This document shows positions 20,694-43,006 of a DNA stretch of 53,751 nucleotides, piece after piece (position 1 is the first letter of the stretch; each line of letters starts with the position of its first letter). The notes beneath the pieces were generated by a model that ran no database searches, was not told where the DNA came from, and was given only the letters and a program-made list of their open reading frames with translations. The stretch spans positions 1 through 53,751 of the IMG/VR virus record IMGVR_UViG_2698536392_000015, one strand, 5' to 3'. A program made the position numbers and the translations under genes. The DNA is from a virus. Its lineage: Duplodnaviria; Heunggongvirae; Uroviricota; Caudoviricetes.

Positions 20694-20696
20694 TGT

Positions 20697-22272: not shown

Positions 22273-22292
22273 TTTTTTATGGAGCCACGATA

Positions 22293-24537: not shown

Positions 24538-24547
24538 GGAAAAAGGT

Positions 24548-24775
24548 ATGGATGATTCAGATCGTGCTCAGGCTGTGATGGAGCGGGGATCAGAACGCGC
24601 CCTTTGTAACCGGCTGACACGTAAGCGCCGGGCAGTGGATGCTCCGGGCAGACGTGTCTGCGCGGACTGTGGCGGAGAGATCCCCGCCGCACGTCTTGTT
24701 GCTGTGCCGGATGCCATCCGTTGTGTGAACTGCCAGAACATCATGGAGGCCCGTCATGTGGGTCAGCATCGTTAA
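24548..24775 (+). CDS. TraR/DksA-type C4 zinc-finger protein
   Basis: CADCGGEIP...CVNCQ motif; ATG 24548 after AAGGAAAAAGG. Confidence 0.6.
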   Translation: MDDSDRAQAVMERGSERALCNRLTRKRRAVDAPGRRVCADCGGEIPAARLVAVPDAIRCVNCQNIMEARHVGQHR

Positions 24776-25064
24776 AGATTATGTTGTGCCGATCCTTTCG
24801 GCGACGGCAACCGCTGGCGGGATATTCATGGCGCTGATGCGCAAAACGTTTGTCCCCCGCGAGGCCTTTGAAAAACTCTCCGACCGCGTTGAGAAGGTGG
24901 AAACCCGCCTGTCGTCACTGCCGACGGAAGCCGAGGTCAACCGTCTGAATGTGGAAATCGTGACCCTGCGGGGCGAACTGAAAACCACGAACGCCACGCT
25001 CCGCTCTGTCTCCTATCAGAACGAACTGCTGCTGGAGCAGGCTGTAAGGAAAAAAACGCAATGA
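24756..25064 (+). CDS. Small membrane protein (102 aa)
   Basis: ATG 24756 with GGAGG RBS; one predicted TM helix. Confidence 0.45.
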   Translation: MWVSIVKDYVVPILSATATAGGIFMALMRKTFVPREAFEKLSDRVEKVETRLSSLPTEAEVNRLNVEIVTLRGELKTTNATLRSVSYQNELLLEQAVRKKTQ

Positions 25065-25351
25065 GTGATTTCATTACTGAAGATCAGCGTCTGGTCATTC
25101 TGCGGTCGCTGGCAGATTACAACGGTGAACTGGGTGAATCCGTGCTCCAAGACTGTCTGGATGATTACGGCCACCGCGTGTCCCGCGACACCGTTCACAC
25201 CCACATTGCCTGGCTTGCCGAGCAGGGACTGGTGCGCAAACGCGTTCTGATTAACGGTTATTTCATCGCGGAACTGACCGGTCGTGGGCAGGATGTGGCG
25301 GAAGGCCGGGCCTGCGTTCCGGGTGTGAAGAAACCACGCGCAAGGGGGTAG
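25061..25351 (+). CDS. Hypothetical late protein (96 aa)
   Basis: Track ORF upstream of terminase genes. Confidence 0.45.
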   Translation: MSDFITEDQRLVILRSLADYNGELGESVLQDCLDDYGHRVSRDTVHTHIAWLAEQGLVRKRVLINGYFIAELTGRGQDVAEGRACVPGVKKPRARG

Positions 25352-25353
25352 CG

Positions 25354-25935
25354 ATGGACAAGCCGACGCGTGGCCGCGTGCGCAAGGTGGATTTGCTCCC
25401 CGACAGCATCCGTAAGCCGCTGCTGGAAATGCTGCGTGAAAAACGTCTGACGCAGGTCCAGATCCGCGAGGAAATCAACCGTCTGATCCGCGAGGCAGGC
25501 CTGCCGGAAGAGCAGCAGCTTTCACCGGCGGCCATCAGCCGGGAAGCCTCCCGTAATGAGCTGATTGCCCGTAACCTGCGTGATTTACGCGAGCAGACAA
25601 AAGCCATGATGGCCGAACTGGGGGACAAGCCGACCGGTGAAACCACGGCACTGATTCTGGAGATGTCCCGCGCCCTGATGTACCGCCGTCTGCGTGCCGC
25701 GACCGAATCCCTGAACAGTGACAGCGACGTGGATATGCGTCTTATTAAGGACATCCTCCTGTCAGCACAGCGTGCGGAAAGTGCCGCCGAGCGCAGCATT
25801 AAACGTGAAAAAGAAATCCGGGCTGCATTTGCTGAAGAGATGGCAAACGCCGTCACCGACGAGCTGCGCGGCGTGGACGGGATGAGTGAACAGCTTGAGT
25901 CCCGTATTAAGGGAATTCTGTTGGGTAAAGCCTGA
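25354..25935 (+). CDS. Putative terminase small subunit (Mu gp27-like)
   Basis: Position immediately upstream of the large terminase; charged helical protein. Confidence 0.5.
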   Translation: MDKPTRGRVRKVDLLPDSIRKPLLEMLREKRLTQVQIREEINRLIREAGLPEEQQLSPAAISREASRNELIARNLRDLREQTKAMMAELGDKPTGETTALILEMSRALMYRRLRAATESLNSDSDVDMRLIKDILLSAQRAESAAERSIKREKEIRAAFAEEMANAVTDELRGVDGMSEQLESRIKGILLGKA

Positions 25936-27599
25936 TGAATAACGCCGAAGAACTCTCCCCCTTACTGACGAATACCGTCTCCACCCGCAAAATTGATCTG
26001 GCCGGTGAAAAAGCCCTGCTGGGCGTGGATGTGCCGGACAGCCTTGATTTGCCCGGTGATATGCCGGTGTTTCTGGATTATCAGGCCCGCTGGTTTGAGG
26101 ATGAAAGTGAGGTCTGCATCGCGGAAAAATCCCGCCGCACCGGGCTTACCTGGGCGGAAGCCGGGCGTAACGTCATTACCGCTGCAAAACCGAAGCGGCG
26201 TGGTGGCCGTAATGTGTTTTATGTGGGGTCAAAGCAGGAGATGGCGCTGGAATATATTTCTGCCTGCGCACTGTTCTCCCGTGCCTTTAACCAGCTGGCC
26301 GATGCTGATGTGTATGAGCAGACCTTCTGGGATCGGGATAAAAAAGAAGAAATTCTGACCTACATGATCCGCTTTCCGAACAGTGGATTCAAAATTCAGG
26401 CACTGTCTTCCCGTCCGTCAAACCTGCGCGGCCTTCAGGGGGATGTGGTGATTGATGAAGCCGCGTTCCACGAGTCACTGGATGAGCTTCTCAAGGCGGC
26501 AATGGCGCTCACCATGTGGGGCGCGCGCGTGCGTATTATCTCCACGCATAACGGCGTCGATAATCTGTTTAATCAGTACATTCAGGAAGCCCGCGAGGGA
26601 CGCAAGGATTACAGTGTCCACCGCATAACCCTGGATGATGCCATTGCGGACGGGCTGTACCGTCGTATCTGTTATGTCACCGGCCGCGAATGGTCACCGG
26701 AAAGCGAGCAGAAGTGGCGTGATGATCTCTACAAAAACGCCCCGACCCGTGAGGATGCCGACGAGGAATACGGCTGTATCCCGAAAAAATCCGGCGGTGC
26801 CTATATTCCTCACGCGCTTATTGAAATGGCGATGATCCGCGACATCCCGATTCTGACGTTTGAAGCCCCGGACGACTTCATCAGCCGTGCCGCATGGCTG
26901 CGTGAATCGGAGGTTTTAACCTGGTGTGAAGAACATTTAAAACCGCTTTTAGAGGCGTTAAATCCCCGTTCCCGCTTCAGCTTCGGGGAAGACTTTGCCC
27001 GCACCGGTGACCTCTCCTGCTTTGTGCTGCTGGAAATCACTGAATCCCTGGCAAAACGCGAGGTGTTTCGCGTGGAGCTGCGCAACCTGCCGTTTGCCCA
27101 GCAGGAGCAGGTGATGATGTACATCCTGACCCGCGTTCCGGCGCTGGTCGGTGCGGCGTTCGACGCCACCGGTAACGGCGGCTATCTGGCCGAAGCCGCG
27201 CTGCTGGCCTTTGGCCCGGACATCATCGACTGCGTGATGTTATCGCCGAAGTGGTACGGCGAGTGGATGCCAAAACTGAAGGCCGAGTTTGAGGATCAGA
27301 ATATCCTCATCGCCCGCCATCAGACCACGCTTGATGATTTGCGCCATGTGAAGGTGGTGAACGGTATCCCGCAAATCGACAAGGGGCGCACGAAGGACCA
27401 GAACGCAACGGCTGTGAACGCCCGCCGCCATGGCGATTTTGCCGTGGCGCTCTGTATGGCAAACCGGGCGTCATACATGGAGGGCTTCATCCTGGATGAA
27501 TCAGCCTGTCAGGCGCTGCCGGAGCGGTCGCGGGCAATGGAGGGCGGTTATCGTGATGACGATGAGGCATATCATGAATTTGATCGGGGGTGCTGGTAG
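25935..27599 (+). CDS. Terminase large subunit (Mu gp28-like)
   Basis: 554 aa, position and size; Walker-B-like VVIDEAAF. Confidence 0.8.
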   Translation: MNNAEELSPLLTNTVSTRKIDLAGEKALLGVDVPDSLDLPGDMPVFLDYQARWFEDESEVCIAEKSRRTGLTWAEAGRNVITAAKPKRRGGRNVFYVGSKQEMALEYISACALFSRAFNQLADADVYEQTFWDRDKKEEILTYMIRFPNSGFKIQALSSRPSNLRGLQGDVVIDEAAFHESLDELLKAAMALTMWGARVRIISTHNGVDNLFNQYIQEAREGRKDYSVHRITLDDAIADGLYRRICYVTGREWSPESEQKWRDDLYKNAPTREDADEEYGCIPKKSGGAYIPHALIEMAMIRDIPILTFEAPDDFISRAAWLRESEVLTWCEEHLKPLLEALNPRSRFSFGEDFARTGDLSCFVLLEITESLAKREVFRVELRNLPFAQQEQVMMYILTRVPALVGAAFDATGNGGYLAEAALLAFGPDIIDCVMLSPKWYGEWMPKLKAEFEDQNILIARHQTTLDDLRHVKVVNGIPQIDKGRTKDQNATAVNARRHGDFAVALCMANRASYMEGFILDESACQALPERSRAMEGGYRDDDEAYHEFDRGCW

Positions 27600-29188
27600 T
27601 GGGACGCATAATTGATCTTGACGGAAAACCTTTCTCCTTTGACCCGGAGATGCAGAGTGCCGTGCTGGATATTCCGCAGATTGCCAGCCGTTATATTGAA
27701 CATCCGGCCTCGGGTATCACCCCGAACCGGGCGGCGCAGTGCCTTCGCGGGGATGAACGTGGCGATCTGATTGCCCAGTCCGATCTGGCGGCTGACATTG
27801 AAGAAAAGGATACCCACCTTTTTGCAGAGCTGGGCAAGCGACGTCTTGCCATTCAGGGCGTGCCCTGGAGTATTGAGCCGCCACCGAACGCCAGCGCGAA
27901 TGAGAAAAAGGACGCGGAAATGCTCGACGAATATCTGCATTCCGCCGACTGGTTTGATGCCATGCTGTTTGACGCCACGGATGCCATCCTGAAGGGCTAT
28001 TCCTGCATGGAGATTGAGCACGGGATGCTCGGTAAAATGCACATCATCCGCGCCATCCGCTGGCGTGACAGCGGGCATTTCTGCCTTAACCCGGATGATT
28101 TGAGCGAACTGCGGCTGCGTGACGGCAGCCATGCCGGGGTGGCGTTTCAGCCCTTTGGCTGGATAGTGCATCAGTCACGTTCACGCACCGGTTACGGCGG
28201 CGCAACAGGGCTTGTCAGAACGCTTATCTGGCCGTTCATTTTCAAAAACTATTCCGTGCGCGATCTGGCTGAATTTCTGGAGGTGTACGGCCTGCCGATG
28301 AAGGTCGGTAAATACCCCTCCGGGGCAACACCGGAGCAGAAAAGCGCCCTGATGCGGGCGGTGATGGATATCGGGCGACGTACAGGCGGGATCATCCCGG
28401 CCGGGATGTCGCTGGAGTTTCAGGCGGCCGCGAACGGTCAGGCCGATCCGTTTGAAACCATGATTTCGTGGGGGGAGCGTTCCATCTCCAAAGCTATCCT
28501 CGGCGGCACGCTGACCACGGAAGCCGGAGACAAGGGCGCGCGCTCGCTGGGTGAAGTGCATAACGAGGTGCGCCGGGAAATCAGGGATTCTGATTTACGT
28601 CAGCTGGCCGCCACGCTGAACCGCGATCTGGTGTATCCGCTGTATGCCCTGAACACCGCCCACGCCATAGATATCCGTCGCCTGCCGCGTATCTGTTTCC
28701 AGACAAAAGAACCGGGGGATATCACCAAAATCACCAGTGCGGTGATGCAGCTCAGTACGGGGATGGATATTCCTGATCCCTGGGTACGGGACCAGACCGG
28801 TATTCCACAGCCTGCCCCCGGTGAAGCCATCTTCCGTGTCCGTCAGAGTGGCAATGAACCTGCTCAGACAGACAAAGAGATGCCACCGGAAAAACAGGAA
28901 AAGACAGAGCAGACGGCGCTGTCAGCCCGACTGCCGGAAGCGAAAAGCAGCCCCCGTGATGAACTGGACGATATGGGGGATGCGGTGCCTGCCCGCCGGT
29001 TACAGGACGCTATCGACCCGCTGCTGGAGCCGGTCATTGATGCCATCAGAACGCGGGGGCTGGCGGATGCGCTGGCAGACCTGCCTGCCCTTTACCGTGA
29101 AATGGATGATTCCCGCCTGATGACGCTGCTCAGTGATGCCATGTTTGCTGCGGAAATGAAGGGGATGATGGATGGCACAGGGGATTGA
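27590..29188 (+). CDS. Portal protein (Mu gp29-like)
   Basis: 532 aa following terminase; size and order as in Mu-like phages. Confidence 0.8.
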   Translation: MLVVGRIIDLDGKPFSFDPEMQSAVLDIPQIASRYIEHPASGITPNRAAQCLRGDERGDLIAQSDLAADIEEKDTHLFAELGKRRLAIQGVPWSIEPPPNASANEKKDAEMLDEYLHSADWFDAMLFDATDAILKGYSCMEIEHGMLGKMHIIRAIRWRDSGHFCLNPDDLSELRLRDGSHAGVAFQPFGWIVHQSRSRTGYGGATGLVRTLIWPFIFKNYSVRDLAEFLEVYGLPMKVGKYPSGATPEQKSALMRAVMDIGRRTGGIIPAGMSLEFQAAANGQADPFETMISWGERSISKAILGGTLTTEAGDKGARSLGEVHNEVRREIRDSDLRQLAATLNRDLVYPLYALNTAHAIDIRRLPRICFQTKEPGDITKITSAVMQLSTGMDIPDPWVRDQTGIPQPAPGEAIFRVRQSGNEPAQTDKEMPPEKQEKTEQTALSARLPEAKSSPRDELDDMGDAVPARRLQDAIDPLLEPVIDAIRTRGLADALADLPALYREMDDSRLMTLLSDAMFAAEMKGMMDGTGD

Positions 29189-30503
29189 TTTAGGTTATGC
29201 CGCCACCCTTCCCTCAAAAGAGGCGGTGGCATACTTCCGCGCCAAAGGGGCGCGTATCAGCTGGAACTGGTTCGAAACAAACGCAGATGTTCATGCCCGA
29301 TCGTTCACGGCGGCAAAAGCGGCACGCCTGGACGTACTGACCACACTACAGGCGGAAGTGCAACGGGCCATTGATGAGGGGATTTCACAGAAAGCATTTA
29401 TCCGCACACTGACACCCCGCCTGCAAAAGCTGGGATGGTGGGGGAAGCAGATTGTGGTGGACAGAGCCGGTAACGCAGAAGAAGTACAGCTGGGCAGTCC
29501 CCGCCGTCTGGCGCTGATTTACAACGTGAACACCCGCGTGGCTTACAATGCCGGGCGTTACACGCAGATGATGAACAACACGGACACGCATCCGTTCTGG
29601 CAGTATGTGGCGGTCATGGACAGCCGTACCCGCCCGTCGCATTCCGCCCTTAACGGTCTGGTATTCCGCTATGATGATCCGTTCTGGAAAACACACTACC
29701 CACCCAATGGCTGGAACTGCCGCTGCCGTGTGCGGCCATTGTCTCAGGCCCGTCTGGATGCAATGGGGTTATCCGTTTCATCCGGTGAGGATCATCTCTC
29801 CACCCGCAATGTTGAGGCTGGCGTGGATAAACAGACCGGAGAAGTCAGAGAAATGCCGGTGACCACATATTCAGATGGCACCAGAACCATGACACCGGAT
29901 GTGGGCTGGTCATATAACCCCGGTTCGGCGGCGTTCGGCACAGACCAGGCGCTGATCCGTAAACTGATCGAGGTGAAAAGCCCGGCGTTACGGGAAATGG
30001 TGGTTCAGGAGATGAACAACAGCCCGGAGCGGCAGCTGGCGTTCCGCATCTGGGCAAAAAACATCATGAAAACCCGGCGAGGCGGTAACGATATCCGCAC
30101 GCTGGGCTTTATGACCGAAAGTATTGCGCAGGCGGTGGAAAGCCGGACAGGAACGCCACCGGCCCGCCTGCTGGCGATGAGCGGTAAAAATGTGCTCCAT
30201 GCGGACAGCATGAAACATCAGAATGACGGTATCGCCCTGACGCCGGAGGATTTCGGGCGATTACCGGCAATGCTGGCAACGCCAAAAGCGGTACTGTGGG
30301 ATAAACGCCACAACAATCTGATGTATATCGTGGAAAGTAAGGATGGCAGTGTGCAGATTGCCGTTAATGCGCCGTACAGCCTGAAGCGTCAGCCGGATAA
30401 ACTGGATGTGATTGTGAATGCTTACCGGGTTATCAATATGGATAAGCTGAAATCGGATATCCGGGGCGGAATGCTTGAGGTACTGGAAGGCGATATTGAT
30501 TAA
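29172..30503 (+). CDS. Head morphogenesis protein (Mu F-like)
   Basis: 443 aa after portal; conserved order. Confidence 0.75.
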   Translation: MAQGIDLGYAATLPSKEAVAYFRAKGARISWNWFETNADVHARSFTAAKAARLDVLTTLQAEVQRAIDEGISQKAFIRTLTPRLQKLGWWGKQIVVDRAGNAEEVQLGSPRRLALIYNVNTRVAYNAGRYTQMMNNTDTHPFWQYVAVMDSRTRPSHSALNGLVFRYDDPFWKTHYPPNGWNCRCRVRPLSQARLDAMGLSVSSGEDHLSTRNVEAGVDKQTGEVREMPVTTYSDGTRTMTPDVGWSYNPGSAAFGTDQALIRKLIEVKSPALREMVVQEMNNSPERQLAFRIWAKNIMKTRRGGNDIRTLGFMTESIAQAVESRTGTPPARLLAMSGKNVLHADSMKHQNDGIALTPEDFGRLPAMLATPKAVLWDKRHNNLMYIVESKDGSVQIAVNAPYSLKRQPDKLDVIVNAYRVINMDKLKSDIRGGMLEVLEGDID

Positions 30504-30624
30504 CGGTCAGTGGCGGGGGTCGAACCCGCATACATGATCCACCCGGAGGCAGGCACCGACTTTACCAGTTAAGCGTACACTGACCGCCTGTTTATTTTAT
30601 ATTCATCCTTTATGCGGAGGCAAT

Positions 30625-31098
30625 ATGTCATCCATTGATGCCGCTGTCGTTGTTGACGTTACGCGTCTCCAGCGGGTCTTTGCCCGGCTTCAGTTTGTGG
30701 GTGGCGGGAAAGACCTGGCCCGCAGTGTGGCGTCCAGCCTTCTGTCATCCTCAGAAATGGCGTTTGAACAGGAAAAAGAGCCGGACGGCGAACGCTGGCA
30801 TGACTGGTCAGATCCTTACCGCAAGTGGCGTACCCGTAAGGGATACATGCCCGGCAAAATCCTGACGCTGAACGGCGATCTGGCCCGACGCCTGACCACG
30901 GATTATGGCGATACCTGGGCGCTGATTGGATCAAATGAGCCTTATGCGGCCATTCATCAGTGGGGTGGCCTGCCAGGTATGCCGCCTGGACCGGCGGCCA
31001 TTGGTGCACGTCCGTATATGGGTTTTGATCAGGTGGCAGAGCAGGAGATCATGGACGAAATCAGAAAACGCTTTAAAAAGGCCACAGAAACACCTTAA
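30625..31098 (+). CDS. Virion morphogenesis protein (Mu G-like)
   Basis: 157 aa; position between F-like and I-like genes. Confidence 0.7.
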   Translation: MSSIDAAVVVDVTRLQRVFARLQFVGGGKDLARSVASSLLSSSEMAFEQEKEPDGERWHDWSDPYRKWRTRKGYMPGKILTLNGDLARRLTTDYGDTWALIGSNEPYAAIHQWGGLPGMPPGPAAIGARPYMGFDQVAEQEIMDEIRKRFKKATETP

Positions 31099-31273
31099 TT
31101 GTTTAAGGTATGCAAATGCATTACCTTACCCCCTTCAGGCGCGTGTCGTGATTTTCTAACCTGTATTTAACGGGCTTTAAAATCTGCGTGAAGCGCCTTT
31201 GCATTTTTCCCTGAAAATACTTCCTGAAATCCCGCAAAACCCGCCCTGAAAATTCCCGGCTTATGCTGCCGGT

Positions 31274-32407
31274 ATGAAGACAGAAAATCACCCAAAAGAC
31301 GCAAATCGCCCCTCTGGTTTAGCCGTGCTTTCAGCTTCGCTGACTGCATCCGGCGACGGATGGTGTCAGTTACTGCCAGCAGGCAGGGTAAAGGCCCGTG
31401 ACGGTCGCCCGGAAAAACCGGCTGAAGGCTGGCTGATTAACGAATCCGCCTGTAACCGGATGAAAGCCGGGCTTTCCGCCCTGAATCAGCCGTTACTGAT
31501 TGATTATGACCATCACTCCATGAATGCGCAGAAAAACGGATTCAAGGCCATTGCCGCAGGTTGGGTTAAGCCGGAAAACATCGAATGGCGTGAGGGGCAG
31601 GGGATTTTCATTAAACCTGAATGGACGCCGCAGGCCCAAAAACATATTGATGACCGTGAATATGCCTATCTGTCTGCGTATATGCATTATTTCGCTGACA
31701 CCGGGGAACCCTACCTGTTGCGCATGGCTTCCCTGACGAATGATCCAGGTATTACGGGTATGAACCCTGTCGCAGCACTCAGTGCTGACGATCTCTATGT
31801 AGTTTCCCCTTCTCAGGAGCAACACCCCATGAATGAGCAATTACGCCAGTTGCTGACGGCGCTCGGTCTGACCGTGGCTGACGGTGACGAATTTACGCCG
31901 GAGCTGGGCACGGCGGCGCTGTCTGCCCTCACCGGGATCAAAACCCGTGCGGATGCACACGACAACCTGAAAACACAGGTCGCCAGTCTGTCGGCAGAGC
32001 TGGAAACCGCAAAAGGCACACCGGCTGGCGGCAGTATTGATCTGACGAAATACGTGCCCGTTGAAACGTATAACGCCCTGCGTACCGAATACGTTGCACT
32101 GTCGGCGCAGCACGGCAGCACCACGCTGGAGCAGGTGCTGGACAAGGCTGAATCCGAAGGGCGCATCTTCAAAAGCGAACGCGGCTATCTGGAACAACTG
32201 GGTGGGCAGATTGGTGTTGCTGCACTTTCTGCACAGCTTGACGCCCGACAGCCGGTTGCGGCCCTGACCGGCCTTCAAACCGACACCGTGACCGTGCCGG
32301 ATAAAAAGACTGCCACCGCTGTGCTGTCGGCTGAAGATATCGCGGCCGCCAAACTGCTGGGTAAAACCGAAGCCGAGTTCCTGAAAATGAAAGAGGAAAT
32401 GCAATAA
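31274..32407 (+). CDS. Head protease/scaffold (Mu I-like)
   Basis: 377 aa directly upstream of the major head gene. Confidence 0.75.
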   Translation: MKTENHPKDANRPSGLAVLSASLTASGDGWCQLLPAGRVKARDGRPEKPAEGWLINESACNRMKAGLSALNQPLLIDYDHHSMNAQKNGFKAIAAGWVKPENIEWREGQGIFIKPEWTPQAQKHIDDREYAYLSAYMHYFADTGEPYLLRMASLTNDPGITGMNPVAALSADDLYVVSPSQEQHPMNEQLRQLLTALGLTVADGDEFTPELGTAALSALTGIKTRADAHDNLKTQVASLSAELETAKGTPAGGSIDLTKYVPVETYNALRTEYVALSAQHGSTTLEQVLDKAESEGRIFKSERGYLEQLGGQIGVAALSAQLDARQPVAALTGLQTDTVTVPDKKTATAVLSAEDIAAAKLLGKTEAEFLKMKEEMQ

Positions 32408-33354
32408 TGCCTACCCCGATTACACCGGCGATGATCACCGCCCTGATGACGGGCTACCGTTCTGATTTTCAGGCCGGGATGTCCATGGCCCCGTCGCAGT
32501 ACAAAAAAATTGCGATGACCGTGCCCTCCACATCGAAATCCAACACCTACGGCTGGCTGGGGCATGCGCCTCATTTTCGTGAGTGGATTGGTTCTCGTGT
32601 GATCCAGAAAATGAAAGCGCACGGTTATTCCATTGTAAACAAGACCTGGGAAGATACCGTCCCTGTTAATCGTGATGATTTTGAGGACGATAATCTCGGT
32701 ATTTACTCGCCTTTATTTCAGGAGCTTGGTCGTGCCGCTGCTGTTCAGCCGGATGAGCTTGTATTTGCTGCTCTGCGTGATGGTCTGAAAAGTGCGTGTT
32801 ACGACGGTCAGAACTTCTTTGATACCGAACACCCCGTCTACCCAAATGTGGATGGTACCGGTGATGTGGCGCTGGTCAGCAACATGTTTGTGGCAAAAAC
32901 CGGCTCTGTCGGTGCACAGGCGGATTACAGCGGACCGGCCTGGTATCTGCTCGACTGCTCCCGTGCAATAAAACCCATCATCTATCAGAGCCGCCGCAAG
33001 GTTGAACTGGTTGCACAGACCAAAATTGATGAAGGTCGCGCATTCACTGATAACGAGTTTGTGTTCGGTGCATCCGTTCGTCACAACGTGGGCTACGGCT
33101 TCTGGCAGATGGCCTACATGATGCAGTCACCGCTGACGCTGGATGCGCTGTGGCATGGCTGGTCCGCCATGCGTGAGTTTACCGCTGACGGTGGCCGCAA
33201 ACTCGGCATCAAACCTACCCATATTGTTGTCCCCACCTCGCTGGAAAAACAGGCGGTGCAGCTGCTGGAGCGTGAACTGTTCGCAGACGGTAACGCCACC
33301 GTCTCTAACGAGATGAAGGGCAAGCTGGAGCTGGTTGTCGCGGATTATCTGTAA
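32407..33354 (+). CDS. Major head subunit (Mu T-like)
   Basis: 315 aa; position after protease/scaffold. Confidence 0.8.
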   Translation: MPTPITPAMITALMTGYRSDFQAGMSMAPSQYKKIAMTVPSTSKSNTYGWLGHAPHFREWIGSRVIQKMKAHGYSIVNKTWEDTVPVNRDDFEDDNLGIYSPLFQELGRAAAVQPDELVFAALRDGLKSACYDGQNFFDTEHPVYPNVDGTGDVALVSNMFVAKTGSVGAQADYSGPAWYLLDCSRAIKPIIYQSRRKVELVAQTKIDEGRAFTDNEFVFGASVRHNVGYGFWQMAYMMQSPLTLDALWHGWSAMREFTADGGRKLGIKPTHIVVPTSLEKQAVQLLERELFADGNATVSNEMKGKLELVVADYL

Positions 33355-33397
33355 ACGGTGAGCCGGGCTTACGGCCCGGCCCCTGCGGAGGGCAAAT

Positions 33398-33781
33398 ATG
33401 AATGAACATCACACTGTGGCAGCAACAGATGATTCAGGTCTTCAGGTCAGTGGTGACAATTCTGTCACGGTGCTGGCAGAAGTGCGTTGCAGTCGTTCGG
33501 CGTTTCGTCGTGCGGGGTTCCTGTTCACGCGTGGACGTCAGCAGGTTGAGGTCACCCCGGAGCAGCTTGCCCGACTGGAGGCGGAGCCATGCCTCACTGT
33601 GCGAATACTACAGACGCCTGCTGATGATGCGGGGAGCGTGGCGGGTGTGGTTCATGCAGTGGCCGGTACAGATTTAGCCGAAGCCGAAGCCGAAGCCGAA
33701 GCCGAAGCCGAAGCCGGACAGGATGCTCCCCGGAAAAAGACCGGTAACAAAGCGAAACAGGCGAAAAAGGCCCGCGCATGA
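33398..33781 (+). CDS. Hypothetical head-region protein with (AE)n repeat and basic C-terminus
   Basis: Track ORF containing a GCCGAA hexanucleotide repeat tract. Confidence 0.5.
   Translation: MNEHHTVAATDDSGLQVSGDNSVTVLAEVRCSRSAFRRAGFLFTRGRQQVEVTPEQLARLEAEPCLTVRILQTPADDAGSVAGVVHAVAGTDLAEAEAEAEAEAEAGQDAPRKKTGNKAKQAKKARA
33677..33718. repeat. Hexanucleotide tandem repeat (GCCGAA) x6 plus one imperfect unit
   Basis: Direct reading of 33677-33718; encodes AEAEAE... in frame. Confidence 0.9.
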
Positions 33782-34197
33782 ATTACGCCACTGAAACCGA
33801 TATGCGGGCGCGTTACCGCGAGGATTTGCTCAGGCCGTTACTGGCTGTGCCCCGTTCGGATGAGCCGGACACGCGCAAGCTGAACCGGGCGCTGACAGAT
33901 GCGTCAGCTCTTATCGACAGCTATCTGTCCGCCCGTTACACGCTGCCGCTGGAGGTTATTCCGGCCGTTCTTGTTCAGCACTGTTGCGCGATTGCCTTTT
34001 ATTACCTGTGCGATCAGCGAGCCTCCGATCAGGCGCGTGACCGTTACCGTGAAGCGCTGGCCTGGCTGAAAGATGTCATGAACGGCAATGTGCCGGTCGG
34101 TGTGGATACGAACGGTGCGGCCCCTGAATCCGGGGATTTACCGCAGGTTCAGTCTGATGCAGCGGTATTCGGGCGCAACCAGAAGGGCTTCGTATGA
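33778..34197 (+). CDS. Head-tail joining region protein (Mu gp36-like)
   Basis: Position and size. Confidence 0.55.
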   Translation: MNYATETDMRARYREDLLRPLLAVPRSDEPDTRKLNRALTDASALIDSYLSARYTLPLEVIPAVLVQHCCAIAFYYLCDQRASDQARDRYREALAWLKDVMNGNVPVGVDTNGAAPESGDLPQVQSDAAVFGRNQKGFV

Positions 34198-34757
34198 TTA
34201 CGGAAACCGAACAGGCATACATCGCCCGTATCCGTGAGTATTTCGGGAATGAACTGGTGTCTGTTGACACGCATCCCGGCGACTGGAGCGACAGCGTACT
34301 GCGCACCATGCTGATTAACGCCCCGGCGATCTACGTTGCCTGGCTGGGTGCCGGTGAAGGCCGTACCCGTGGTCGCCTGGTCAGTCACTGGGTGTTCTAC
34401 GTCATCGGCGACATGCTCAACGGGCGTGAGGCCAGCCGTCCCGGACTGTATCAGATTGTGGCCCGGCTGATTGCCGTGCTTAACGGCTTCAGAACAGAAA
34501 AAACCTCACCGCTTTACTTTGAAAAGGCGGTCAACGGTTACACCGAAACCCAGGCAGACAGTGGTGCGGTGATGTATGCGCTTTATTTCTCCTGCGAGGA
34601 AATGATCGCACCGCTGACCGATATCAGCTCGCTGGATGATTTCCTGCGCCATTACGAAACCTTCACCGAACCGGAAGGTACACCGGCATTTGAGGCACAC
34701 ATCAGCCTGCCTGGTGCAACCGCCGCCGGTGAAAAAGCCGGACCGTCAGAGGAATAA
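34194..34757 (+). CDS. Mu gp37-like virion protein
   Basis: Position and size. Confidence 0.55.
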   Translation: MITETEQAYIARIREYFGNELVSVDTHPGDWSDSVLRTMLINAPAIYVAWLGAGEGRTRGRLVSHWVFYVIGDMLNGREASRPGLYQIVARLIAVLNGFRTEKTSPLYFEKAVNGYTETQADSGAVMYALYFSCEEMIAPLTDISSLDDFLRHYETFTEPEGTPAFEAHISLPGATAAGEKAGPSEE

Positions 34758-34760
34758 CAG

Positions 34761-34991
34761 ATGACAACCATTTTTATCAAACCCGCGCCGGGATGCCTGA
34801 TTCGTGATCCCGACACAATGCGCCCGCTGGCACAGGAGGGGGAGGAAAAGCCCTTCACGCCGTTCTGGTGTCGGCGTCTTGATGACGGCGATGTGATTGA
34901 GATTGAAAAAACAGCCGGTTCTGCGGATGCACCGGCAGAAAAACCCGCAGCGACTGTAAAACCCGTGGCATCTGACAAGGAGGCTTCCTGA
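34761..34991 (+). CDS. Mu gp38-like small protein
   Basis: Position upstream of sheath. Confidence 0.5.
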   Translation: MTTIFIKPAPGCLIRDPDTMRPLAQEGEEKPFTPFWCRRLDDGDVIEIEKTAGSADAPAEKPAATVKPVASDKEAS

Positions 34992-36472
34992 TGATCAACT
35001 TTGATTCCATCAGTAATACAAACCGTATTCCGCTTTTTCAGGCGGAATTCAATAACTCCATGGCGGTAACCGGTACTCCGCCACAGCGTCAGTGTGTCCT
35101 GTTGTTCGGACAGAGAAGTTCTTCTGTTGGTGGTGCTATTAACGTTCCGTACCGTATCACAAGGGCAGAACAGGCCGCCGAGCGCTGGGGAAGAGGCTCC
35201 ATGATTGCCCGCATGGTGGCTGAATTTATTGCCATCAATCCTGATACAGAACTGTATGCCATCGCACAGGATAACGGGACAGGCAAAAACGACGCCGGAA
35301 CGATTACGATGAGCGGAACATCCGTTGTTGACGGTGTGCTCAGTATTTATATCGCCGGTAAGGGGTATCCGGTGGCTGTCAGCAAAGGAGAAAAAGCGGC
35401 GGATGTTGCCGGAAAACTGGCTCTGCTCATAAATCAGGATCTGGATGCGCCTGTTGCTGCTGTGGCAAACGCCCCGTCAGACAATAGTGATGCCACAAAA
35501 AAAGTTATCGCACTGTCAGCAAAGTTCGTCAGCGAGTGTGACCATGATGTCCGGCTGAATTATTACCCGGAGGATGTTACTCCGCTTGGGATTACCGTGA
35601 TCATCTCCGGTCGCTCAGCCGTCCCAAAAAACCCGGATATCACCCGCAGCGTGGCTGCGATGGGAGATCGGCAGTACAACTATATCGTCATGCCGTATAA
35701 AGATGCAGCCAATCTGAAGATTCTGGCGAACGAACTGCTGACGCGCTGGGGACCGGAAAAAATGAATGATGGTATGGTCTGGATGGCGCATACCGGTACG
35801 TTTGGTAATGTGTCCAGCTTCGGGGAGTCCAGAAATGATTTTCTGTTTACCTGTACCGCGATCCCAAAAGCACCGGAACCGGATTATATCTGGGCAGTCA
35901 CCCTGTGCGCCACCTGTGCGCCGTCTTTATCAGTCGATCCGGCACGACCTCTGCAATCTCTGGCATTGCCTTCCCGACTGGCTCCGGCATTGTCTGCCCG
36001 CCTTACAAATGAGGAACGAAACAGTCTGTTGTATACGGGTATTTCCACGGTAACGGTGGGAGCCGGTGATGTGATGCAGATTGAGCGTCAGGTAACCATG
36101 TATCGCCAGAACGCATACGGCGAAAGCGATCCCAGCTATCTGGATGTGGAAACCATCTACACCCTGTCATATCTGCGTTACTCCCTGCGGGTATTCATTA
36201 CACAGCGTTTCCCCCGCCATAAGCTGGCAGATGACGGAACGCCTGTTGGTCCCGGACAGTTCATTGTGACACCGCAGATCATGAAGCTCCAGTTGATTGC
36301 TCTGGGTGAAGAGTGGATTGAACAGGGGCTGGTCGAGAATATGGAGGTATTTAAAAACAATCTGCTTGTGGAGCGTAACGCAACTGATCGTAACCGTCTG
36401 GATGTGATGTGTACACCGGACCTGGTTAACCAGTTCCGCTTCATGGCAGCGCAGATCCGTTTCATTTTGTGA
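34991..36472 (+). CDS. Contractile tail sheath protein
   Basis: 493 aa followed by a small tube gene. Confidence 0.85.
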   Translation: MINFDSISNTNRIPLFQAEFNNSMAVTGTPPQRQCVLLFGQRSSSVGGAINVPYRITRAEQAAERWGRGSMIARMVAEFIAINPDTELYAIAQDNGTGKNDAGTITMSGTSVVDGVLSIYIAGKGYPVAVSKGEKAADVAGKLALLINQDLDAPVAAVANAPSDNSDATKKVIALSAKFVSECDHDVRLNYYPEDVTPLGITVIISGRSAVPKNPDITRSVAAMGDRQYNYIVMPYKDAANLKILANELLTRWGPEKMNDGMVWMAHTGTFGNVSSFGESRNDFLFTCTAIPKAPEPDYIWAVTLCATCAPSLSVDPARPLQSLALPSRLAPALSARLTNEERNSLLYTGISTVTVGAGDVMQIERQVTMYRQNAYGESDPSYLDVETIYTLSYLRYSLRVFITQRFPRHKLADDGTPVGPGQFIVTPQIMKLQLIALGEEWIEQGLVENMEVFKNNLLVERNATDRNRLDVMCTPDLVNQFRFMAAQIRFIL

Positions 36473-36480
36473 GGTAAGAC

Positions 36481-36846
36481 ATGAGCGGAAAACAGTATCA
36501 GGGCACGGCCACTATCCGTGTGAACGGTCAGGAATACTCCACCCTTGAGGGGGCCACGTTCTCCCCGTCCGGCTTTGAGCGTGAAGTGGTGAAAGGCGCA
36601 AAAGTCTATGGCTATCGCGAGAAACCACGTGAAGCGACGCTGGACTGCAAATTTCCGGCAGGCGGAGACGGTTCACCGGCCGCTGATGAAATCAACACTT
36701 GGACTGCGGTCACTATCGAGTTTGTGGCGGACACCGGCGAAGTCCACATGATGACGAAGGCCTGGAGCAGTGAACCGGCCTCACTTGACGGTGGCGGGGA
36801 GATCTCCGCGAAGTTCGCCAGTGCCACCAGTACCCGTGTCCAGTAA
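36481..36846 (+). CDS. Tail tube protein
   Basis: 121 aa directly after sheath. Confidence 0.8.
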   Translation: MSGKQYQGTATIRVNGQEYSTLEGATFSPSGFEREVVKGAKVYGYREKPREATLDCKFPAGGDGSPAADEINTWTAVTIEFVADTGEVHMMTKAWSSEPASLDGGGEISAKFASATSTRVQ

Positions 36847-36860
36847 TCAGGAAAAATAAA

Positions 36861-37337
36861 ATGACCACACGTAAGAAAAAAACAGCGGTTTCTGACGAAG
36901 CCGTTATTGAGGCTATCCGTGATGCACTTGAGGACGGCGATCCACGCACCGCCGGTCTGGCTGAACAACTGGCGAAAGGCTATGTGGATCTGCTCGACGG
37001 TCTGCCGTTCGGGGAATCCCGTGAATACCGCGTCACCTTCCGTGAACTGACGGCGAAAGACAGCATTGATGCGGAAACCGATGCTGAACGTCTTATGGAA
37101 ACCCGAAATGGCCCGGTTCTGGTGGCATCACCGGCCCTGCGCGGTATTGCGCTGCTGCGTCGCCAGATTGCCGCTGTCGGTGACATTCAGGGGCCGTTGT
37201 CACAACGCCAGATTGGACAGTTAAGCGAGCGCGATCTCTCCCGTCTGATGGCAGCGGTCAGCCTGCTGGATACAGCACTTGCCGGAAAGCTGGCGGCTGA
37301 ACGGGGGCGAGCAGGCGCAGTGTCGGGCGCAGATTGA
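36861..37337 (+). CDS. Tail assembly chaperone-like protein (Mu gp41-like)
   Basis: Position between tube and tape measure; an open +1 frame overlaps its 3' end. Confidence 0.55.
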   Translation: MTTRKKKTAVSDEAVIEAIRDALEDGDPRTAGLAEQLAKGYVDLLDGLPFGESREYRVTFRELTAKDSIDAETDAERLMETRNGPVLVASPALRGIALLRRQIAAVGDIQGPLSQRQIGQLSERDLSRLMAAVSLLDTALAGKLAAERGRAGAVSGAD

Positions 37338-37464
37338 AGAAGCGGCAATAGTGCTGGGGATGGTGACCAGAAGCGGCCCGGAATGGGCACTTAACCTCCC
37401 CTTATCGCAACTTTACCGGCACTGCCAACAAACGGAAAAAATTCTCAGAACGAAGCAGTAATCC

Positions 37465-39519
37465 ATGGCAAAAAACCTGAAAGCCTCCCTGATTGTCGAT
37501 TTACTCGGCAATGTTTCCGCCAAATCCCGCCAGTGGTCACAGGAGCTGGGAGCGTTCTCCCGCGTCGGCAGGACGGGGCTGGGTGGTATTGGAAATGCAG
37601 CCCGCCGTGCCGGTCAGGAGACAGAGCTTGTCGGCTCCCGTATGCAGCGTACGCTTGCCGGTGTCCGTGGCAGTATCCGCACGGTAACGTCGGATTTTGA
37701 CCGTCTTCAGGGCAGTATTACCGGCACACTGGGACGTCTCAGCAACCTTTACGGGATGCTGGCAGGAGGGGCTGCGGTCTACGGTTTTAATAAAGCCTTT
37801 ATCCGCCCGGCCGCAGAGATGGAGAACTATATTCTGCGTCTCAATGCCATTAATCATGGCGATACGGCAAAAACGGAAGCAGTGAAAGCCTGGGCGGTAC
37901 AGAACGCAAAGGAAACCACCTGGGGGCTGGCGGGGGTTATGCAGGAATACGCCTCCAGTCGCGGGTTCGGTATGAGTGACAGGGAAGCCCGCCGCTTTAT
38001 TACCATGCTTCAGGATCAGGGCGGCTATCACGGCTGGTCACTGTCAGATGCACAGGGTGCGTCCCTGCAACTCAAACAGATGTTTTCCCGCCAGAGTATC
38101 CAGGCCGCAGACGCCAATATCCTGACCGGATACGGGATAAACGTTTACCAGTTGCTGGCCGATAAACTGGGTGTAAACCAGAAGATCATCCGTGAGAAAG
38201 GCGAGAAAGGAAAACTGGGATCGGACAGCATTCGGCTGTTATTTCAGGTGATGGCCGAACAGGCAAAAGGTGCCCAGAAAAACGCCATGAACTCATGGAC
38301 AGGGATGACATCCATGATGGGCGACGTCTGGGACGGATTTGCCCGTGAAGTAATGGCAAAAGGGCCATTTGACAGCCTGAAAAAGAGCCTGAAAGGCTTC
38401 CTGGATTATGCCGATGCGGCACAGAAAAGCGGCTTACAGGACAAGCTGGCCACACAAACAGCCTCAGCCCTGAATCAGGGGTTTGAGTATGCCAGAGACG
38501 CAGCGACGGGTTTTTACCGGGCCATTCAGAAAGTCAGGGAAACGCTTCAGGCATTGCGTGACGCTGGTTATGGCGATGCGCTGAATCGCATTGGTCAGGG
38601 CGCACAGACCGCCGCGAAATATCTCCTGTATATGTATCTCGCCACCCGTGCGCTGAAGGCTGTCCGCGCCATAGGTCTTGGGGTGCTGCGACCGGGGGCG
38701 GTATTGTTGGGGTACGGGTTATCCACGGCCGCTGTGCTGACCTCACCTTTTCGTAAACCGCAGACCACCGTTCCGGGCACGCAGCCAGGACGTGGCCAGC
38801 GTTTTATGAACTTTCTTACCGGGGTAAATCCTGCTGCCGTTCAGCCCGTACTGGTCACCAACTGGCCTGCGGGTGGTCTGGCATCAGGTGGCGGGGATGT
38901 GCTGGTCAGCGGTGACGGCAAAACCGTGCGCGGTCGTAAAAAACGCGGCCCCGGACGTGGGCGGGGTGTTTCGACCGTTGTGACCGCAGGCGAACAACTG
39001 GCAGAGAGTGCCGGTAAACAGGGCTTCTTCGGTCGAATGATGAGCCGTGCCGGTGGTCTGCTTTCGGCTGCCGGAAACCGCATGGGACTGGGGCGTTTTG
39101 CCGGGCTTTTCCGTGGTGCTGGTCGGCTGGGTGGTGGTGCCCTGTGGGCCGGTGCCATGGCGGCTCCTGTACTGCTGGACAGCAGTGCCAGTGCCGTTGA
39201 TAAAGCCGGTGCCGTGGGTTCCCTTGCCGGAAGTATCGCCGGTGGTGCGCTGGGGGCTGCCGCCGGTCCGGTCGGGGTTGCCATTGGTTCCACGGTGGGC
39301 AGTTATCTCGGTGATTATCTGGGGGGATGGCTGACCGAAGCCTGGCAGAAATTACGGGGCAGTGATGAAAATGGCGGACAGGCCACCGCGAAAACCGCCG
39401 CACGGGTGGAGCTTGTGGCCCCTGAAGGCTGGCGGGCACGCAGTATTGATGTGGATGATACCGCACAGCATGGCCTGGATGTGAACGTCTGGAACGGAGG
39501 GAACTATGGCCTCTACTGA
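37465..39519 (+). CDS. Tail tape measure protein
   Basis: 684 aa, Gly/Ala-rich C-terminal region, position after the chaperone. Confidence 0.8.
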   Translation: MAKNLKASLIVDLLGNVSAKSRQWSQELGAFSRVGRTGLGGIGNAARRAGQETELVGSRMQRTLAGVRGSIRTVTSDFDRLQGSITGTLGRLSNLYGMLAGGAAVYGFNKAFIRPAAEMENYILRLNAINHGDTAKTEAVKAWAVQNAKETTWGLAGVMQEYASSRGFGMSDREARRFITMLQDQGGYHGWSLSDAQGASLQLKQMFSRQSIQAADANILTGYGINVYQLLADKLGVNQKIIREKGEKGKLGSDSIRLLFQVMAEQAKGAQKNAMNSWTGMTSMMGDVWDGFAREVMAKGPFDSLKKSLKGFLDYADAAQKSGLQDKLATQTASALNQGFEYARDAATGFYRAIQKVRETLQALRDAGYGDALNRIGQGAQTAAKYLLYMYLATRALKAVRAIGLGVLRPGAVLLGYGLSTAAVLTSPFRKPQTTVPGTQPGRGQRFMNFLTGVNPAAVQPVLVTNWPAGGLASGGGDVLVSGDGKTVRGRKKRGPGRGRGVSTVVTAGEQLAESAGKQGFFGRMMSRAGGLLSAAGNRMGLGRFAGLFRGAGRLGGGALWAGAMAAPVLLDSSASAVDKAGAVGSLAGSIAGGALGAAAGPVGVAIGSTVGSYLGDYLGGWLTEAWQKLRGSDENGGQATAKTAARVELVAPEGWRARSIDVDDTAQHGLDVNVWNGGNYGLY

Positions 39520-40864
39520 CACGCCGGGGCGTGGCTCCTTTCGTGGTGTACCGTTTCTGGTTTATCAGGAACAACGGGAACGGGGCGGACGTAACATTGT
39601 ACGCCGTGAATATCCTCTGCGGGAAAGCGGCGGCGCGGATGATTTGGGGCCAAAACTCCCGGAGTTTACATTCACGGCTCTTGTGATCGGCGATGATCTT
39701 CAGACGCAGCGAAGCCGCCTGCGGGATGCGCTGCGGGCACCCGGTGCCGGTGAACTGATGCACCCGGATTACGGCACCTTAAACGTGCTGATAAACAGCT
39801 TTGAAAGCCGTTATAACGCCAGCGAACAGGGAACGGTTGAGTTCACAATCAACGTGATCCCCGCCTGTGATGATACCGCACCGGCGGTGGCTGAAGACAC
39901 GGCTGCCGTTCTGGAGCAGAAAAGCGGTTCAGCAATGAATCAGTTGTTTAACACGCTTTCAGACGGCTGGACAGTGATTTCAGACGGCCTGCATGATGTG
40001 CAGGCCATGACCGACACCATCAGCGATAAAATTGATGCGCTGGAGAATGCAGTTTCGGGAATGGGGATTGTGCAGGATATCAGTGCCTTTACGGCCAGTT
40101 TCACTGCCCTGAAAGGGAATGCTGCCGCCCTGATTAATTCGCCCCATCGCATGGCTGAATCTCTGGCCGGAATGTTTGCGGTGCTGACGGGACTGCCCGG
40201 CGATCCTTCCCTGTCACTGACCGGGAAGGCCGCAACGCCGTCCGGCAGCCTGACCACAAACCGTGACAGCATGACAGAGCAGGCAATGCCGCAACTGTAC
40301 CGCACACTTTCTTCCCTGCGTTATACCCTCAGCGGGCAGGATGATCCGCAGATCCTGATTGGTCTGACGCCTGCGGCACAGAAAAATATCTGTCTTCTGC
40401 GGACAGTCATGCAGAGCGCAACCCTGGTGTCACAGGCGCAGACGGTAGGAAAACTGCTGGATCAGGTCGTCCGGCAGAGTGCGACGCACGTTCAGGATAC
40501 TGACCGGGAGGGCGGACTGGCCTGGCTGGAAAGTTCTGCCGATGTGCAGCGGCTCAACCGGGATTTGAGTGATGCCCTGGAACAACAGGTGCTGGATTTG
40601 TCCGCACAGGGCCATACCGGAACCGCCCTTGCATTACGTGATGCCAGGCTTGCGCTGACAGAGGATTTAACAACGCGTAGCGTTCATCTTCCCGGCGCTT
40701 CTCAGGTCATGGTGCGAACCACCGAACCGGCACTGGTCACACTGTACCGTGCCACCGGCAACAGCCGCCGCTGGCAGTATTTTGTCCGCAGGAACAACAT
40801 CCCTGATCCGGTTTTTGTTCCTGGTGGTCGCAGTGTGGAGGTGATCAGTGAGCAGCATGATTGA
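39506..40864 (+). CDS. DNA circulation protein (Mu N-like)
   Basis: 452 aa after tape measure. Confidence 0.7.
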   Translation: MASTDTPGRGSFRGVPFLVYQEQRERGGRNIVRREYPLRESGGADDLGPKLPEFTFTALVIGDDLQTQRSRLRDALRAPGAGELMHPDYGTLNVLINSFESRYNASEQGTVEFTINVIPACDDTAPAVAEDTAAVLEQKSGSAMNQLFNTLSDGWTVISDGLHDVQAMTDTISDKIDALENAVSGMGIVQDISAFTASFTALKGNAAALINSPHRMAESLAGMFAVLTGLPGDPSLSLTGKAATPSGSLTTNRDSMTEQAMPQLYRTLSSLRYTLSGQDDPQILIGLTPAAQKNICLLRTVMQSATLVSQAQTVGKLLDQVVRQSATHVQDTDREGGLAWLESSADVQRLNRDLSDALEQQVLDLSAQGHTGTALALRDARLALTEDLTTRSVHLPGASQVMVRTTEPALVTLYRATGNSRRWQYFVRRNNIPDPVFVPGGRSVEVISEQHD

Positions 40865-41972
40865 GCTGTATATTGGTGGCAGTATTTTTTCCGGCTGGCT
40901 GACAGTAAGCGTCCGTCGTTCTCTGGAGCATCTGGCCGGGTCGTTTGAACTGGGGCTGATGCTGCCCGGTGAGCGCATCCCCTCAGCCCTGCGGACCGGT
41001 CAGTCCCTGACGCTCAGAATTAACGGGCAGACGGTCATCAGTGGCTGGCTGGATCAGGTCAGTCAGCGGATCAGTGCAACCCGTCATCAGATCAGCATCA
41101 GCGGTCGGGATAAAACCGGCGACCTGGTGGACTGTGCCGCCATCCATCCCGGCAGTCAGTGGCGAAACCGGACGCTGGCACAGATTGCCGCAGATTTATG
41201 TGCGCCCTTCGGAATAGCCGTGCGCTGGCAGGTTAACGACGACACGGCTGCACGCCCCTTCAGCTCTTTTACCCTGGAAAACTCAGAAACCGTGGCGGAT
41301 GCGCTGACCCGTGCGGCCCGGCATCGTGGGGTGCTGGTGACCAGTAATGCTGACGGCGATCTGGTGTTCACCCAGGCAGGAAATCAGCAGACGGACAGAC
41401 TGGTGCTGGGGGAAAACCTGCTTGATGCCGATTACAACACGGACTGGCGCGGACGATACAGCGAATACCGTGTCCGGGGGCATGGACGCGGTGGTGGCAA
41501 ACGGGGAGACAGCGAATCCGCCGCCCGGCTGGCGGCCCCTGTGGGTGTCATCAGTGATGATCAGATCGGTCGCTACCGGCCGAAAATCATCCTCGCCGAT
41601 CAACAGACAGACACCTCCGGTGCACGGCAGCGCGCCCTGCGGGAGATGCGCCGTGCGGTTGCCCGTTCAGAACGGTTTTCCGCCACCGTGCGTGGCTGGT
41701 TCCGGGATGATGGCCGGTTATGGGATGTCAATCTGCTGACCGGTGTTTCGGCCCTGCGTTTCGGTATCGAACAGACTGAACTTCTGGTCTGCCAGGTGGA
41801 GTTTTTACTGGATGAGCAGAACGGGGAAGTCACCCGGCTGGTACTGGCACCGCGTGACGGCTTTATCGTTCCGGCAGAGCCGGACAGTAAGGGGCGTGGT
41901 GGTTCCGGTGATGATGTTGATGCCTTTATTCGCCAGCAGATGAAAAAACAGGGGATCAGCTTTGATGAATGA
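40848..41972 (+). CDS. Baseplate/tail protein (Mu P-like)
   Basis: 374 aa; conserved order. Confidence 0.7.
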   Translation: MSSMIELYIGGSIFSGWLTVSVRRSLEHLAGSFELGLMLPGERIPSALRTGQSLTLRINGQTVISGWLDQVSQRISATRHQISISGRDKTGDLVDCAAIHPGSQWRNRTLAQIAADLCAPFGIAVRWQVNDDTAARPFSSFTLENSETVADALTRAARHRGVLVTSNADGDLVFTQAGNQQTDRLVLGENLLDADYNTDWRGRYSEYRVRGHGRGGGKRGDSESAARLAAPVGVISDDQIGRYRPKIILADQQTDTSGARQRALREMRRAVARSERFSATVRGWFRDDGRLWDVNLLTGVSALRFGIEQTELLVCQVEFLLDEQNGEVTRLVLAPRDGFIVPAEPDSKGRGGSGDDVDAFIRQQMKKQGISFDE

Positions 41973-42576
41973 TGAAGTGTTCAGCCGCCTGATTGCCCCG
42001 GTAACTCGCGGCATTCGCCTGCTGTTTGGCCGCGGCGTTCTGACCGGCACACATGACGAACTGAAAATGCAGAATGTGCAGCTTACCGGCATGGACGGCG
42101 AAACCTTTGATGATGTGGAGCGTCCCCAGCAGTACGGGCAGATCAGCGTTCCCCTGCCGGGTGCGGAAACCTTTTTTGCCTGTCTGGGCGGGCAGCGTGA
42201 TCAGACCGTGGTGCTTGTGGTGGAAGACCGCCGCAGTCGCCCGACCGGACTCACTTCCGGAGATACCGGCGTGTATCACCATGAGGGGCACCGTATACGT
42301 CTTACCCGCGACGGGAGGATCATCGTGACCTGTAAGACGCTGGAGATTTACGCCGATGAAGGTGTTCAGGTGGATACACCGGAAGCCACTTTTACGGGCA
42401 ATGTCACGGTGGATAAAAACCTGCATATCAAAGGTAATCTGACCATTGACGGCACAGGAAAATCACAGGGTACGTTCACGATGTCCGAGGCTGTTATTGC
42501 CGGAATCACCTATTCCGGCCATGTACATCATGATAACGGTGAAGGCAGTAAGACAGGAGCGCCGGAGAATGGCTGA
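41962..42576 (+). CDS. Baseplate spike/assembly protein (Mu gp45-like)
   Basis: 204 aa; position. Confidence 0.65.
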   Translation: MMNDEVFSRLIAPVTRGIRLLFGRGVLTGTHDELKMQNVQLTGMDGETFDDVERPQQYGQISVPLPGAETFFACLGGQRDQTVVLVVEDRRSRPTGLTSGDTGVYHHEGHRIRLTRDGRIIVTCKTLEIYADEGVQVDTPEATFTGNVTVDKNLHIKGNLTIDGTGKSQGTFTMSEAVIAGITYSGHVHHDNGEGSKTGAPENG

Positions 42577-43006
42577 TATTGCAATTGTGTGGGATAAGGG
42601 ATGCGGTTCGCTGCAACTGAACGGTGCAGACCTGCTGACAGATGACAGCCTGATGACAGCGGTTCTGATTTCACTGTTCACTGACCGCCGGGCACTGACG
42701 TCGGATGAAATCCCTGATGGCACTCGTGACCGCCGGGGATGGTGGGGAGACAGCTTTCGCCAGCGTCCCATTGGCTCCCGTCTGTGGCTTCTCAGCCGGG
42801 AAAAAACGCTGGCCTCTGTGATAAGCCGTGCCCGTGCCTACGCGGATGAGGCGCTGGGCTGGCTCAGTCAGGATGGCGTGGCGTCATCCGTGGTCTGTCA
42901 TGCAGAACGTGTGGGGCACGCGCGGCTGGCGCTTTCGGTGCGCATAACCCTGCCTGATGGTTCGGTAAGACCCATGATTTTTTATGCTGATCTTAAGGGG
43001 GAGTAA
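42569..43006 (+). CDS. Baseplate protein (gp25/GpW-like)
   Basis: Start MADIAIVW at 42569; track ORF 42446..43006. Confidence 0.65.
   Translation: MADIAIVWDKGCGSLQLNGADLLTDDSLMTAVLISLFTDRRALTSDEIPDGTRDRRGWWGDSFRQRPIGSRLWLLSREKTLASVISRARAYADEALGWLSQDGVASSVVCHAERVGHARLALSVRITLPDGSVRPMIFYADLKGE

Follow-up and report, generated by a model that had tools for sequence, protein, structure and literature searches.

A perfect hexanucleotide array within a head-region gene of a Mu-like prophage raises the question of whether its copy number varies among strains and, if so, how it changes and what this means for the protein that it encodes. We addressed this question in a stretch of 53,751 nucleotides (positions 1 to 53,751 of IMG/VR record IMGVR_UViG_2698536392_000015, hereafter the window). 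The original prediction, made from the letters of this stretch alone, was of a GCCGAA microsatellite that encodes an (AE)n linker and changes length by slippage without loss of frame. Both the observation and its interpretation are upheld, and the identity of the tract as a named marker, EHC-5, is added here. The account that we favor, and consider very probable, is that the tract is the coding VNTR EHC-5, a slippage-driven and largely neutral repeat that forms a flexible linker in a protein encoded by an E. coli Mu-like prophage of the Sp18 type.

The Repeat Tract and Its Reading Frame

Direct reading and a script both place six perfect copies of GCCGAA on the plus strand at 33677-33712, and a variant unit, GCCGGA, follows directly on the 3′ side at 33713-33718. 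The original description, a perfect six-copy repeat and one imperfect unit, matches the letters at 33677-33718 exactly. Tandem Repeats Finder reports the array at 33676-33716 (period 6, 6.8 copies, 100% matches, score 82), and within the window it is the sole array with more than about three copies at 100% identity. The 36-base pattern of the tract has one exact occurrence and a second, offset by one unit, with one mismatch, and it has no match in 100 dinucleotide-preserving shuffles of the window; its occurrence is far beyond chance.

The first GCC of the array begins 279 bases, or 93 codons, into the ORF 33398..33781 (33677-33398 = 279) and is thus its codon 94. The in-frame coding claim holds, with the tract encoding (AE)6-AG from this codon onward, of which the perfect array accounts for (Ala-Glu)6 at residues 94-105 and the variant unit for Ala-Gly. 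The translation around the tract runs ...TDL-AEAEAEAEAEAE-AG-QDAPRKK..., and a longer reading of the same stretch is ...VAGTDL-(AE)6-AG-QDAPRKKTGNKAKQAKKARA. The variant unit is itself a second small VNTR, expanding to (AG)2-5 after (AE)n in some alleles (P0046-P0048, P0052, and P0061). An ORF of 61 aa with an (RL)n tract is also open on the minus strand at 33594-33779; the conserved gene on the plus strand encloses it, and it was rejected as a by-product of the repeat.

The Host Gene and Its Protein Family

The ORF that carries the tract (33398..33781, plus strand) encodes a 127-aa HI1506-related/Mu gp35-family protein, named “HI1506-related protein” in RefSeq, which is laid out as a FluMu_N domain (aa 36-72), the (AE)n tract (aa 94-107), and a basic tail, PRKKTGNKAKQAKKARA. 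The FluMu_N match (PF17891) scores 37.5 bits against a gathering cut-off of 25.8, and the ORF also matches phrog_3622. Phage Mu gp35, which occupies the same gene position, has the N-terminal domain in common with it (51% identity over 41 aa, E 2e-12). The sole solved relative is Haemophilus FluMu gp35/HI1506 (PDB 2OUT, phmmer E 4.6e-5), and a Foldseek search of the PDB with the model of the host protein returned this structure as its top match (probability 0.99) and no phage-virion structure that would place gp35 in the particle. In a 2025 cryo-EM study of Mu, gp35 was not seen in the structure and a connector-related role was suggested (PMC11915804).

The host gene lies between genes for a Mu-like major head subunit, gpT (32407..33354, plus strand, PF10124), and a Mu gp36-family head-tail adaptor (33778..34197, plus strand, PF07030), and its placement in the head region is confirmed by these neighbors. 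A Mu-like protease/scaffold gene (PF10123) is found further upstream, while gp37 (PF08873), DUF2635, and the tail sheath follow beyond gp36. The stop codon of the host gene overlaps the ATG of the gp36 gene.

The host protein is like Mu gp35 and the HI1506 family in its homologous N-terminal FluMu_N domain and in the flexible segment that follows it, and like Mu gp35 in the location of its gene between gpT and gp36. It differs at the C-terminus. Mu gp35, HI1506, and the Edwardsiella homologue P0084 have a C-terminal domain of ~50 aa, whereas in the alignment the corresponding part of the E. coli Sp18-type protein consists of (AE)n and a basic tail of 17 aa, and the C-terminal domain of Mu gp35 and P0084 is missing. 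A second, helical domain after the linker was absent from the host protein both in the alignment with these two proteins and in the AlphaFold model. At the matching point of its linker Mu gp35 carries LAEAG just once, without a repeat, and this motif is a plausible seed from which the array may have grown.

Identity With the Typing Locus EHC-5

An MLVA scheme for EHEC O157/O26/O111 that includes EHC-5 was reportedly set out by Izumiya et al. in 2010, in Microbiol Immunol 54:569. Matching the scheme's primers to the window gave a forward EHC-5 site at 33605..33627 (plus strand, one mismatch) and a reverse EHC-5 site at 33733..33755 (minus strand, one mismatch, at the 5′ end of the primer). The two are convergent and enclose the tract, with a predicted amplicon of 151 bp (33605-33755). 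Shuffles of the window gave no EHC-5 primer match, and the remaining primers of the scheme had no convincing match in the window. Judged by the primers as reprinted in S5 Table of PMC10062581, the tract is the VNTR/MLVA locus EHC-5.

Public institutes in Japan type EHEC with the scheme that includes EHC-5; most O157 clades lack this locus, and in others its repeat number differs greatly (PMC10062581). The strain table of the same study lists alleles 0, 2, 3, 5, 6, 7, 9, 10, 11, 12, 13, and 14. The polymorphism of the tract is thus already known and in routine typing use. Accessible papers on EHC-5 contain no discussion of the gene or of the encoded (AE)n tract. A full-text literature search with the hexamer in all 12 rotations/strands found no relevant paper, and full-text searches on HI1506, or on VNTR together with O157 and Mu-like, found nothing. 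What is added here is the gene-level anatomy of the locus, an (Ala-Glu)n tract in the predicted disordered part of a gp35/HI1506-family protein of a Mu-like prophage.

Copy-Number Variation Among Related Loci

The original prediction held that strains may vary in repeat number, and set this against an identical copy number in all homologues. The comparison decisively contradicts such uniformity, as the tract ranges from 1 to 17 units across E. coli genomes and IMG/VR contigs. Of 5426 complete E. coli genomes, 228 carry the host gene, with a median of one copy per genome and 2-4 copies in some. Direct reads of the tract at 20 related loci, drawn from complete genomes and IMG/VR contigs, gave 1, 2, 3, 4, 5, 6, 7, 8, 11, 12, 13, 14, 15, 16, and 17 GCCGAA-type units, and the long alleles among these loci are perfect arrays. 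Interrupted alleles (VE, SE, KE, TE) occur among the protein representatives. A scan of one representative genome per species found no relative; these representative genomes evidently lack the prophage, and other species are represented here by Shigella and Edwardsiella proteins.

A broader survey of aligned spans took 60 evenly spaced records from the 229 E. coli records that matched a 593-bp query. The spans range from 560 to 659 bp and equal 593 plus multiples of 3, and all 60 can be decoded into steps of 6 bp together with a single further indel of 9 bp (KKA), located in the C-terminal tail (KQAKKARA vs. KQARA). This decoding agrees with the direct reads at all 11 loci checked. The annotated CDS is open in every allele examined, at lengths of 354-450 nt. 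Length changes in whole 6-bp units, with alleles of 1-8 and 11-17 units and an open CDS, are what the expectation of frame-keeping change had called for. The closest comparison is that of cattle isolates 121 and 136 (genomes of 5,455,348 and 5,455,355 bp), in which ~40.6 kb around the gene are identical except for one GCCGAA unit (13 vs. 14).

Low-complexity tracts can invite errors of sequencing or assembly, and one could read the variation as an artefact of this kind. Many “partial” database proteins do end in or at the tract, so that assemblies evidently break there, and the alleles P0072 and P0082 resemble frameshift errors. However, the differences in complete long-read genomes are always whole 6-bp units, exactly one unit is all that separates the near-clonal genomes 121 and 136 over 40.6 kb, and the same polymorphism has been found in Japanese O157 isolates by capillary fragment sizing in MLVA (PMC10062581). 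These fragment-length data are independent experimental support for the polymorphism of the tract. Because of them and of the exact one-unit difference between otherwise identical 40-kb regions, an artefact can be excluded as nearly as makes no difference.

The incomplete records deserve a brief description of their own. Homologues labeled “partial” that end in or at the AE tract include P0060 (82 members), P0066, P0067, P0069, P0070, and P0073. Draft assemblies plausibly break at the tract so often owing to the presence of several prophage copies with different repeat lengths. In P0072 the tract is read as (KP)n in the +1 frame before the protein returns to frame, and P0082 starts in an alternative frame, that of ORF 33402-33677; either these alleles carry double frameshifts or their sequences contain errors. 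In practice, short-read assemblies should be treated with caution at this locus, since they often break at the tract.

Slippage as the Probable Mechanism and Its Alternatives

Three observations lead us to infer slipped-strand mispairing as the mechanism: the steps are whole units, near-clonal genomes differ by one unit, and the long arrays are pure. During DNA replication the nascent and template strands would misalign by whole 6-bp units, and each misalignment would add or remove Ala-Glu dipeptides. We also considered slippage promoted by hairpins and rejected it, as neither DNA strand of the tract folds better than shuffled sequence, the strands folding no better or worse. With no hairpin on either strand, plain register slippage would be enough.

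For RecA-dependent exchange, arrays of 36-100 bp offer little length of substrate. This counts against a second route to length change, unequal homologous recombination or gene conversion between multiple copies of the Mu-like prophage. The 2-4 gene copies in some genomes would allow such exchange, and a jump of several units is on record, isolates CEC18128 and CEC18136 being identical at 16 other loci but carrying 5 and 9 repeats at EHC-5 (PMC10062581). The median of one gene copy per genome speaks against it, as does the difference between 121 and 136, which is confined at one locus to a single unit between identical flanks. We regard recombination as a distinctly improbable main route; it may play a part where a genome has 2-4 copies, as a minority do, but is not needed.

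Slippage in this gene would not disrupt the ORF or the translationally coupled gp36, because the unit is two codons long, and the stop/start overlap with gp36 would be preserved at any unit count. The same facts bear on whether the tract is a phase-variable contingency locus that turns gp35, or gp36 downstream of it, on and off. Such a reading might be suggested by the type of sequence, a simple repeat within a gene that a pathogen's mobile element carries, and by the overlap of the stop codon with the next start codon. However, the tract lies inside the ORF and not in a promoter, the unit is 6 bp, and all annotated CDSs are intact. Every allele keeps the frame, which excludes classical phase variation for practical purposes, and we give it hardly any credence.

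Probable Tolerance of Length Change in the Encoded Protein

The AlphaFold model of the host protein, which drew on 16 closely related homologues, has low overall confidence (mean pLDDT 56). It predicts an alpha/beta N-domain at residues 23-72 with moderate confidence (pLDDT ~72, block range 59-77), and no secondary structure, and thus no helices, after residue 85; pLDDT falls below 50 at residues 87-110, and the tract occupies residues 94-107. The tract is accordingly predicted to lie within a disordered segment between the folded N-terminal domain and the short basic tail, and to call it a linker is reasonable. What this linker joins in the E. coli version is the N-domain and a short basic tail, not a second folded domain.

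Because the tract would lie in an intrinsically disordered segment, changes in its length would be tolerated and the locus could drift freely and fast. The tract is best read as a tolerated, flexible acidic spacer. Near-neutral drift of tract length is favored because the allele spectrum is flat and the count varies even between clonal isolates. The breadth of the length variation that EHC-5 tolerates would likewise follow from a unit that is in frame and a segment that is predicted to be unstructured.

Charge provides an argument for a different view, in which the length of (AE)n is functional and under selection, the acidic spacer tuning the reach of the basic tail of a virion- or connector-associated protein or neutralizing its charge, so that different tract lengths would confer different assembly, DNA-binding, or stability properties. 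The tail GQDAPRKKTGNKAKQAKKARA has a net charge of +7 and each repeat unit adds -1, so that the net charge of the C-terminal region runs from ~+6 (n = 1) to ~-10 (n = 17) across the alleles, a shift that could matter functionally. In addition, HI1506 and Mu gp35 keep a linker and a second domain at the position of the tract, and the frame is open in all alleles seen. Nonetheless, the distribution of alleles is broad and flat over 1-17 units with no preferred length, near-clonal strains differ in unit count, a 6-bp unit keeps the frame with or without selection, and gp35 is unresolved in the Mu virion (PMC11915804). Selection on tract length is, in our judgment, unlikely. A more specific proposal, in which (AE)n is not a neutral marker but a “charge and length rheostat” kept by selection, is a little harder still to credit. 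If it were true, slippage would shift the net charge of the C-terminal region and so generate phage subpopulations in which gp35 either does or does not bind DNA or the capsid/connector, which would amount to graded, non-ON/OFF variation in a virion-associated protein. On balance, we infer near-neutrality of tract length, with slippage supplying the variation.

The Mu-Like Prophage and Its Surroundings

The locus is carried by a Mu-like prophage on the plus strand, with an approximate extent of 12421..51912, which contains a repressor-like gene (12780-13388) and a MuA-like transposase gene (13822-15912). This prophage is itself inserted in a lambdoid prophage, where it splits a DUF968/ydfU-like gene into parts at 12077-12433 and 51795-52661, with junctions at ~12421 and ~51912. 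After the split gene come rusA (52674-53033) and a Q-like antiterminator (53030-53572). Both flanks are contiguous in phage Evi LR597642 (19005/19002). A 5-bp target duplication of the Mu type was looked for at both junctions and none was resolved.

The 593-bp query has a 100% match in E. coli 2015C-3121 (NZ_CP027340.1). We considered whether the window is the prophage of this strain and rejected this, as the flanks were not colinear on direct comparison; the Mu-like prophage in the window lies inside a lambdoid prophage and not in hofC. None of the complete genomes compared matched the whole window. In the related prophage of NZ_CP027340.1, RefSeq annotates a “tRNA-OTHER” on the minus strand (L001 17108-17187) between the Mu F-like and G-like genes, and ARAGORN found no tRNA anywhere in the window.

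Two records of Stx-converting phages, LC727881.1 and LC727895.1, are annotated with an “inserted Bacteriophage Mu-like phage” that includes the host gene. Since these records also show the insertion, a Mu-like element inside a lambdoid prophage is a recurring arrangement. Their spans are 6 and 24 bp longer than the 601-bp query, equal to one and four extra units. One of 267 gene locations falls on a plasmid-classed record (H51, NZ_CP074995.1, 166,865 bp), and the Mu-like element is therefore found on extrachromosomal DNA as well.

The lambdoid part of the window contains other repeats. An iteron-like array with a 15/30-bp period (CCCGTCAAATATTGACCC.TCAAC.GTTGA) is present at 6344-6442 inside a lambdoid O-like replication gene (6003-6980), which has an HTH_36 match, and this array is most likely the lambdoid replication origin. 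A tandem repeat at 391-476, in the lambdoid early region, consists of 21 bp x 4 (42 bp x 2, 75-80% matches) within the overlapping ORFs 131-508 and 171-572, and no primer of the MLVA scheme matches there.

Relation to Known Typing Loci

The tract is ordinary in the sense that it has already been described, as VNTR locus EHC-5. The significance of the present analysis is modest, as the locus already serves the public-health typing of EHEC, and it lies in giving this marker a physical nature, (Ala-Glu)n in a predicted disordered region of a gp35/HI1506-family protein. This also accounts for the frequent null alleles of EHC-5, which reflect absence of the prophage. A new biological question would arise only if tract length affects gp35 function.

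Between the allele in the window and EHC-5 there is no substantive difference, the former having six GCCGAA units and one GCCGGA. As with EHC-5, the host gene is absent in most strains and the tract is highly polymorphic where it is present. Outbreak typing also makes use of the PulseNet loci O157-3, O157-9, O157-17, and O157-25, short tandem repeats that are in frame and gain or lose whole units, and the O157-numbered MLVA loci are present in most O157 strains. Like these four loci, the tract is a coding hexanucleotide VNTR. The difference is one of location, as EHC-5 is prophage-borne and for this reason often absent, whereas the O157-numbered loci amplify in most isolates (PMC10062581).
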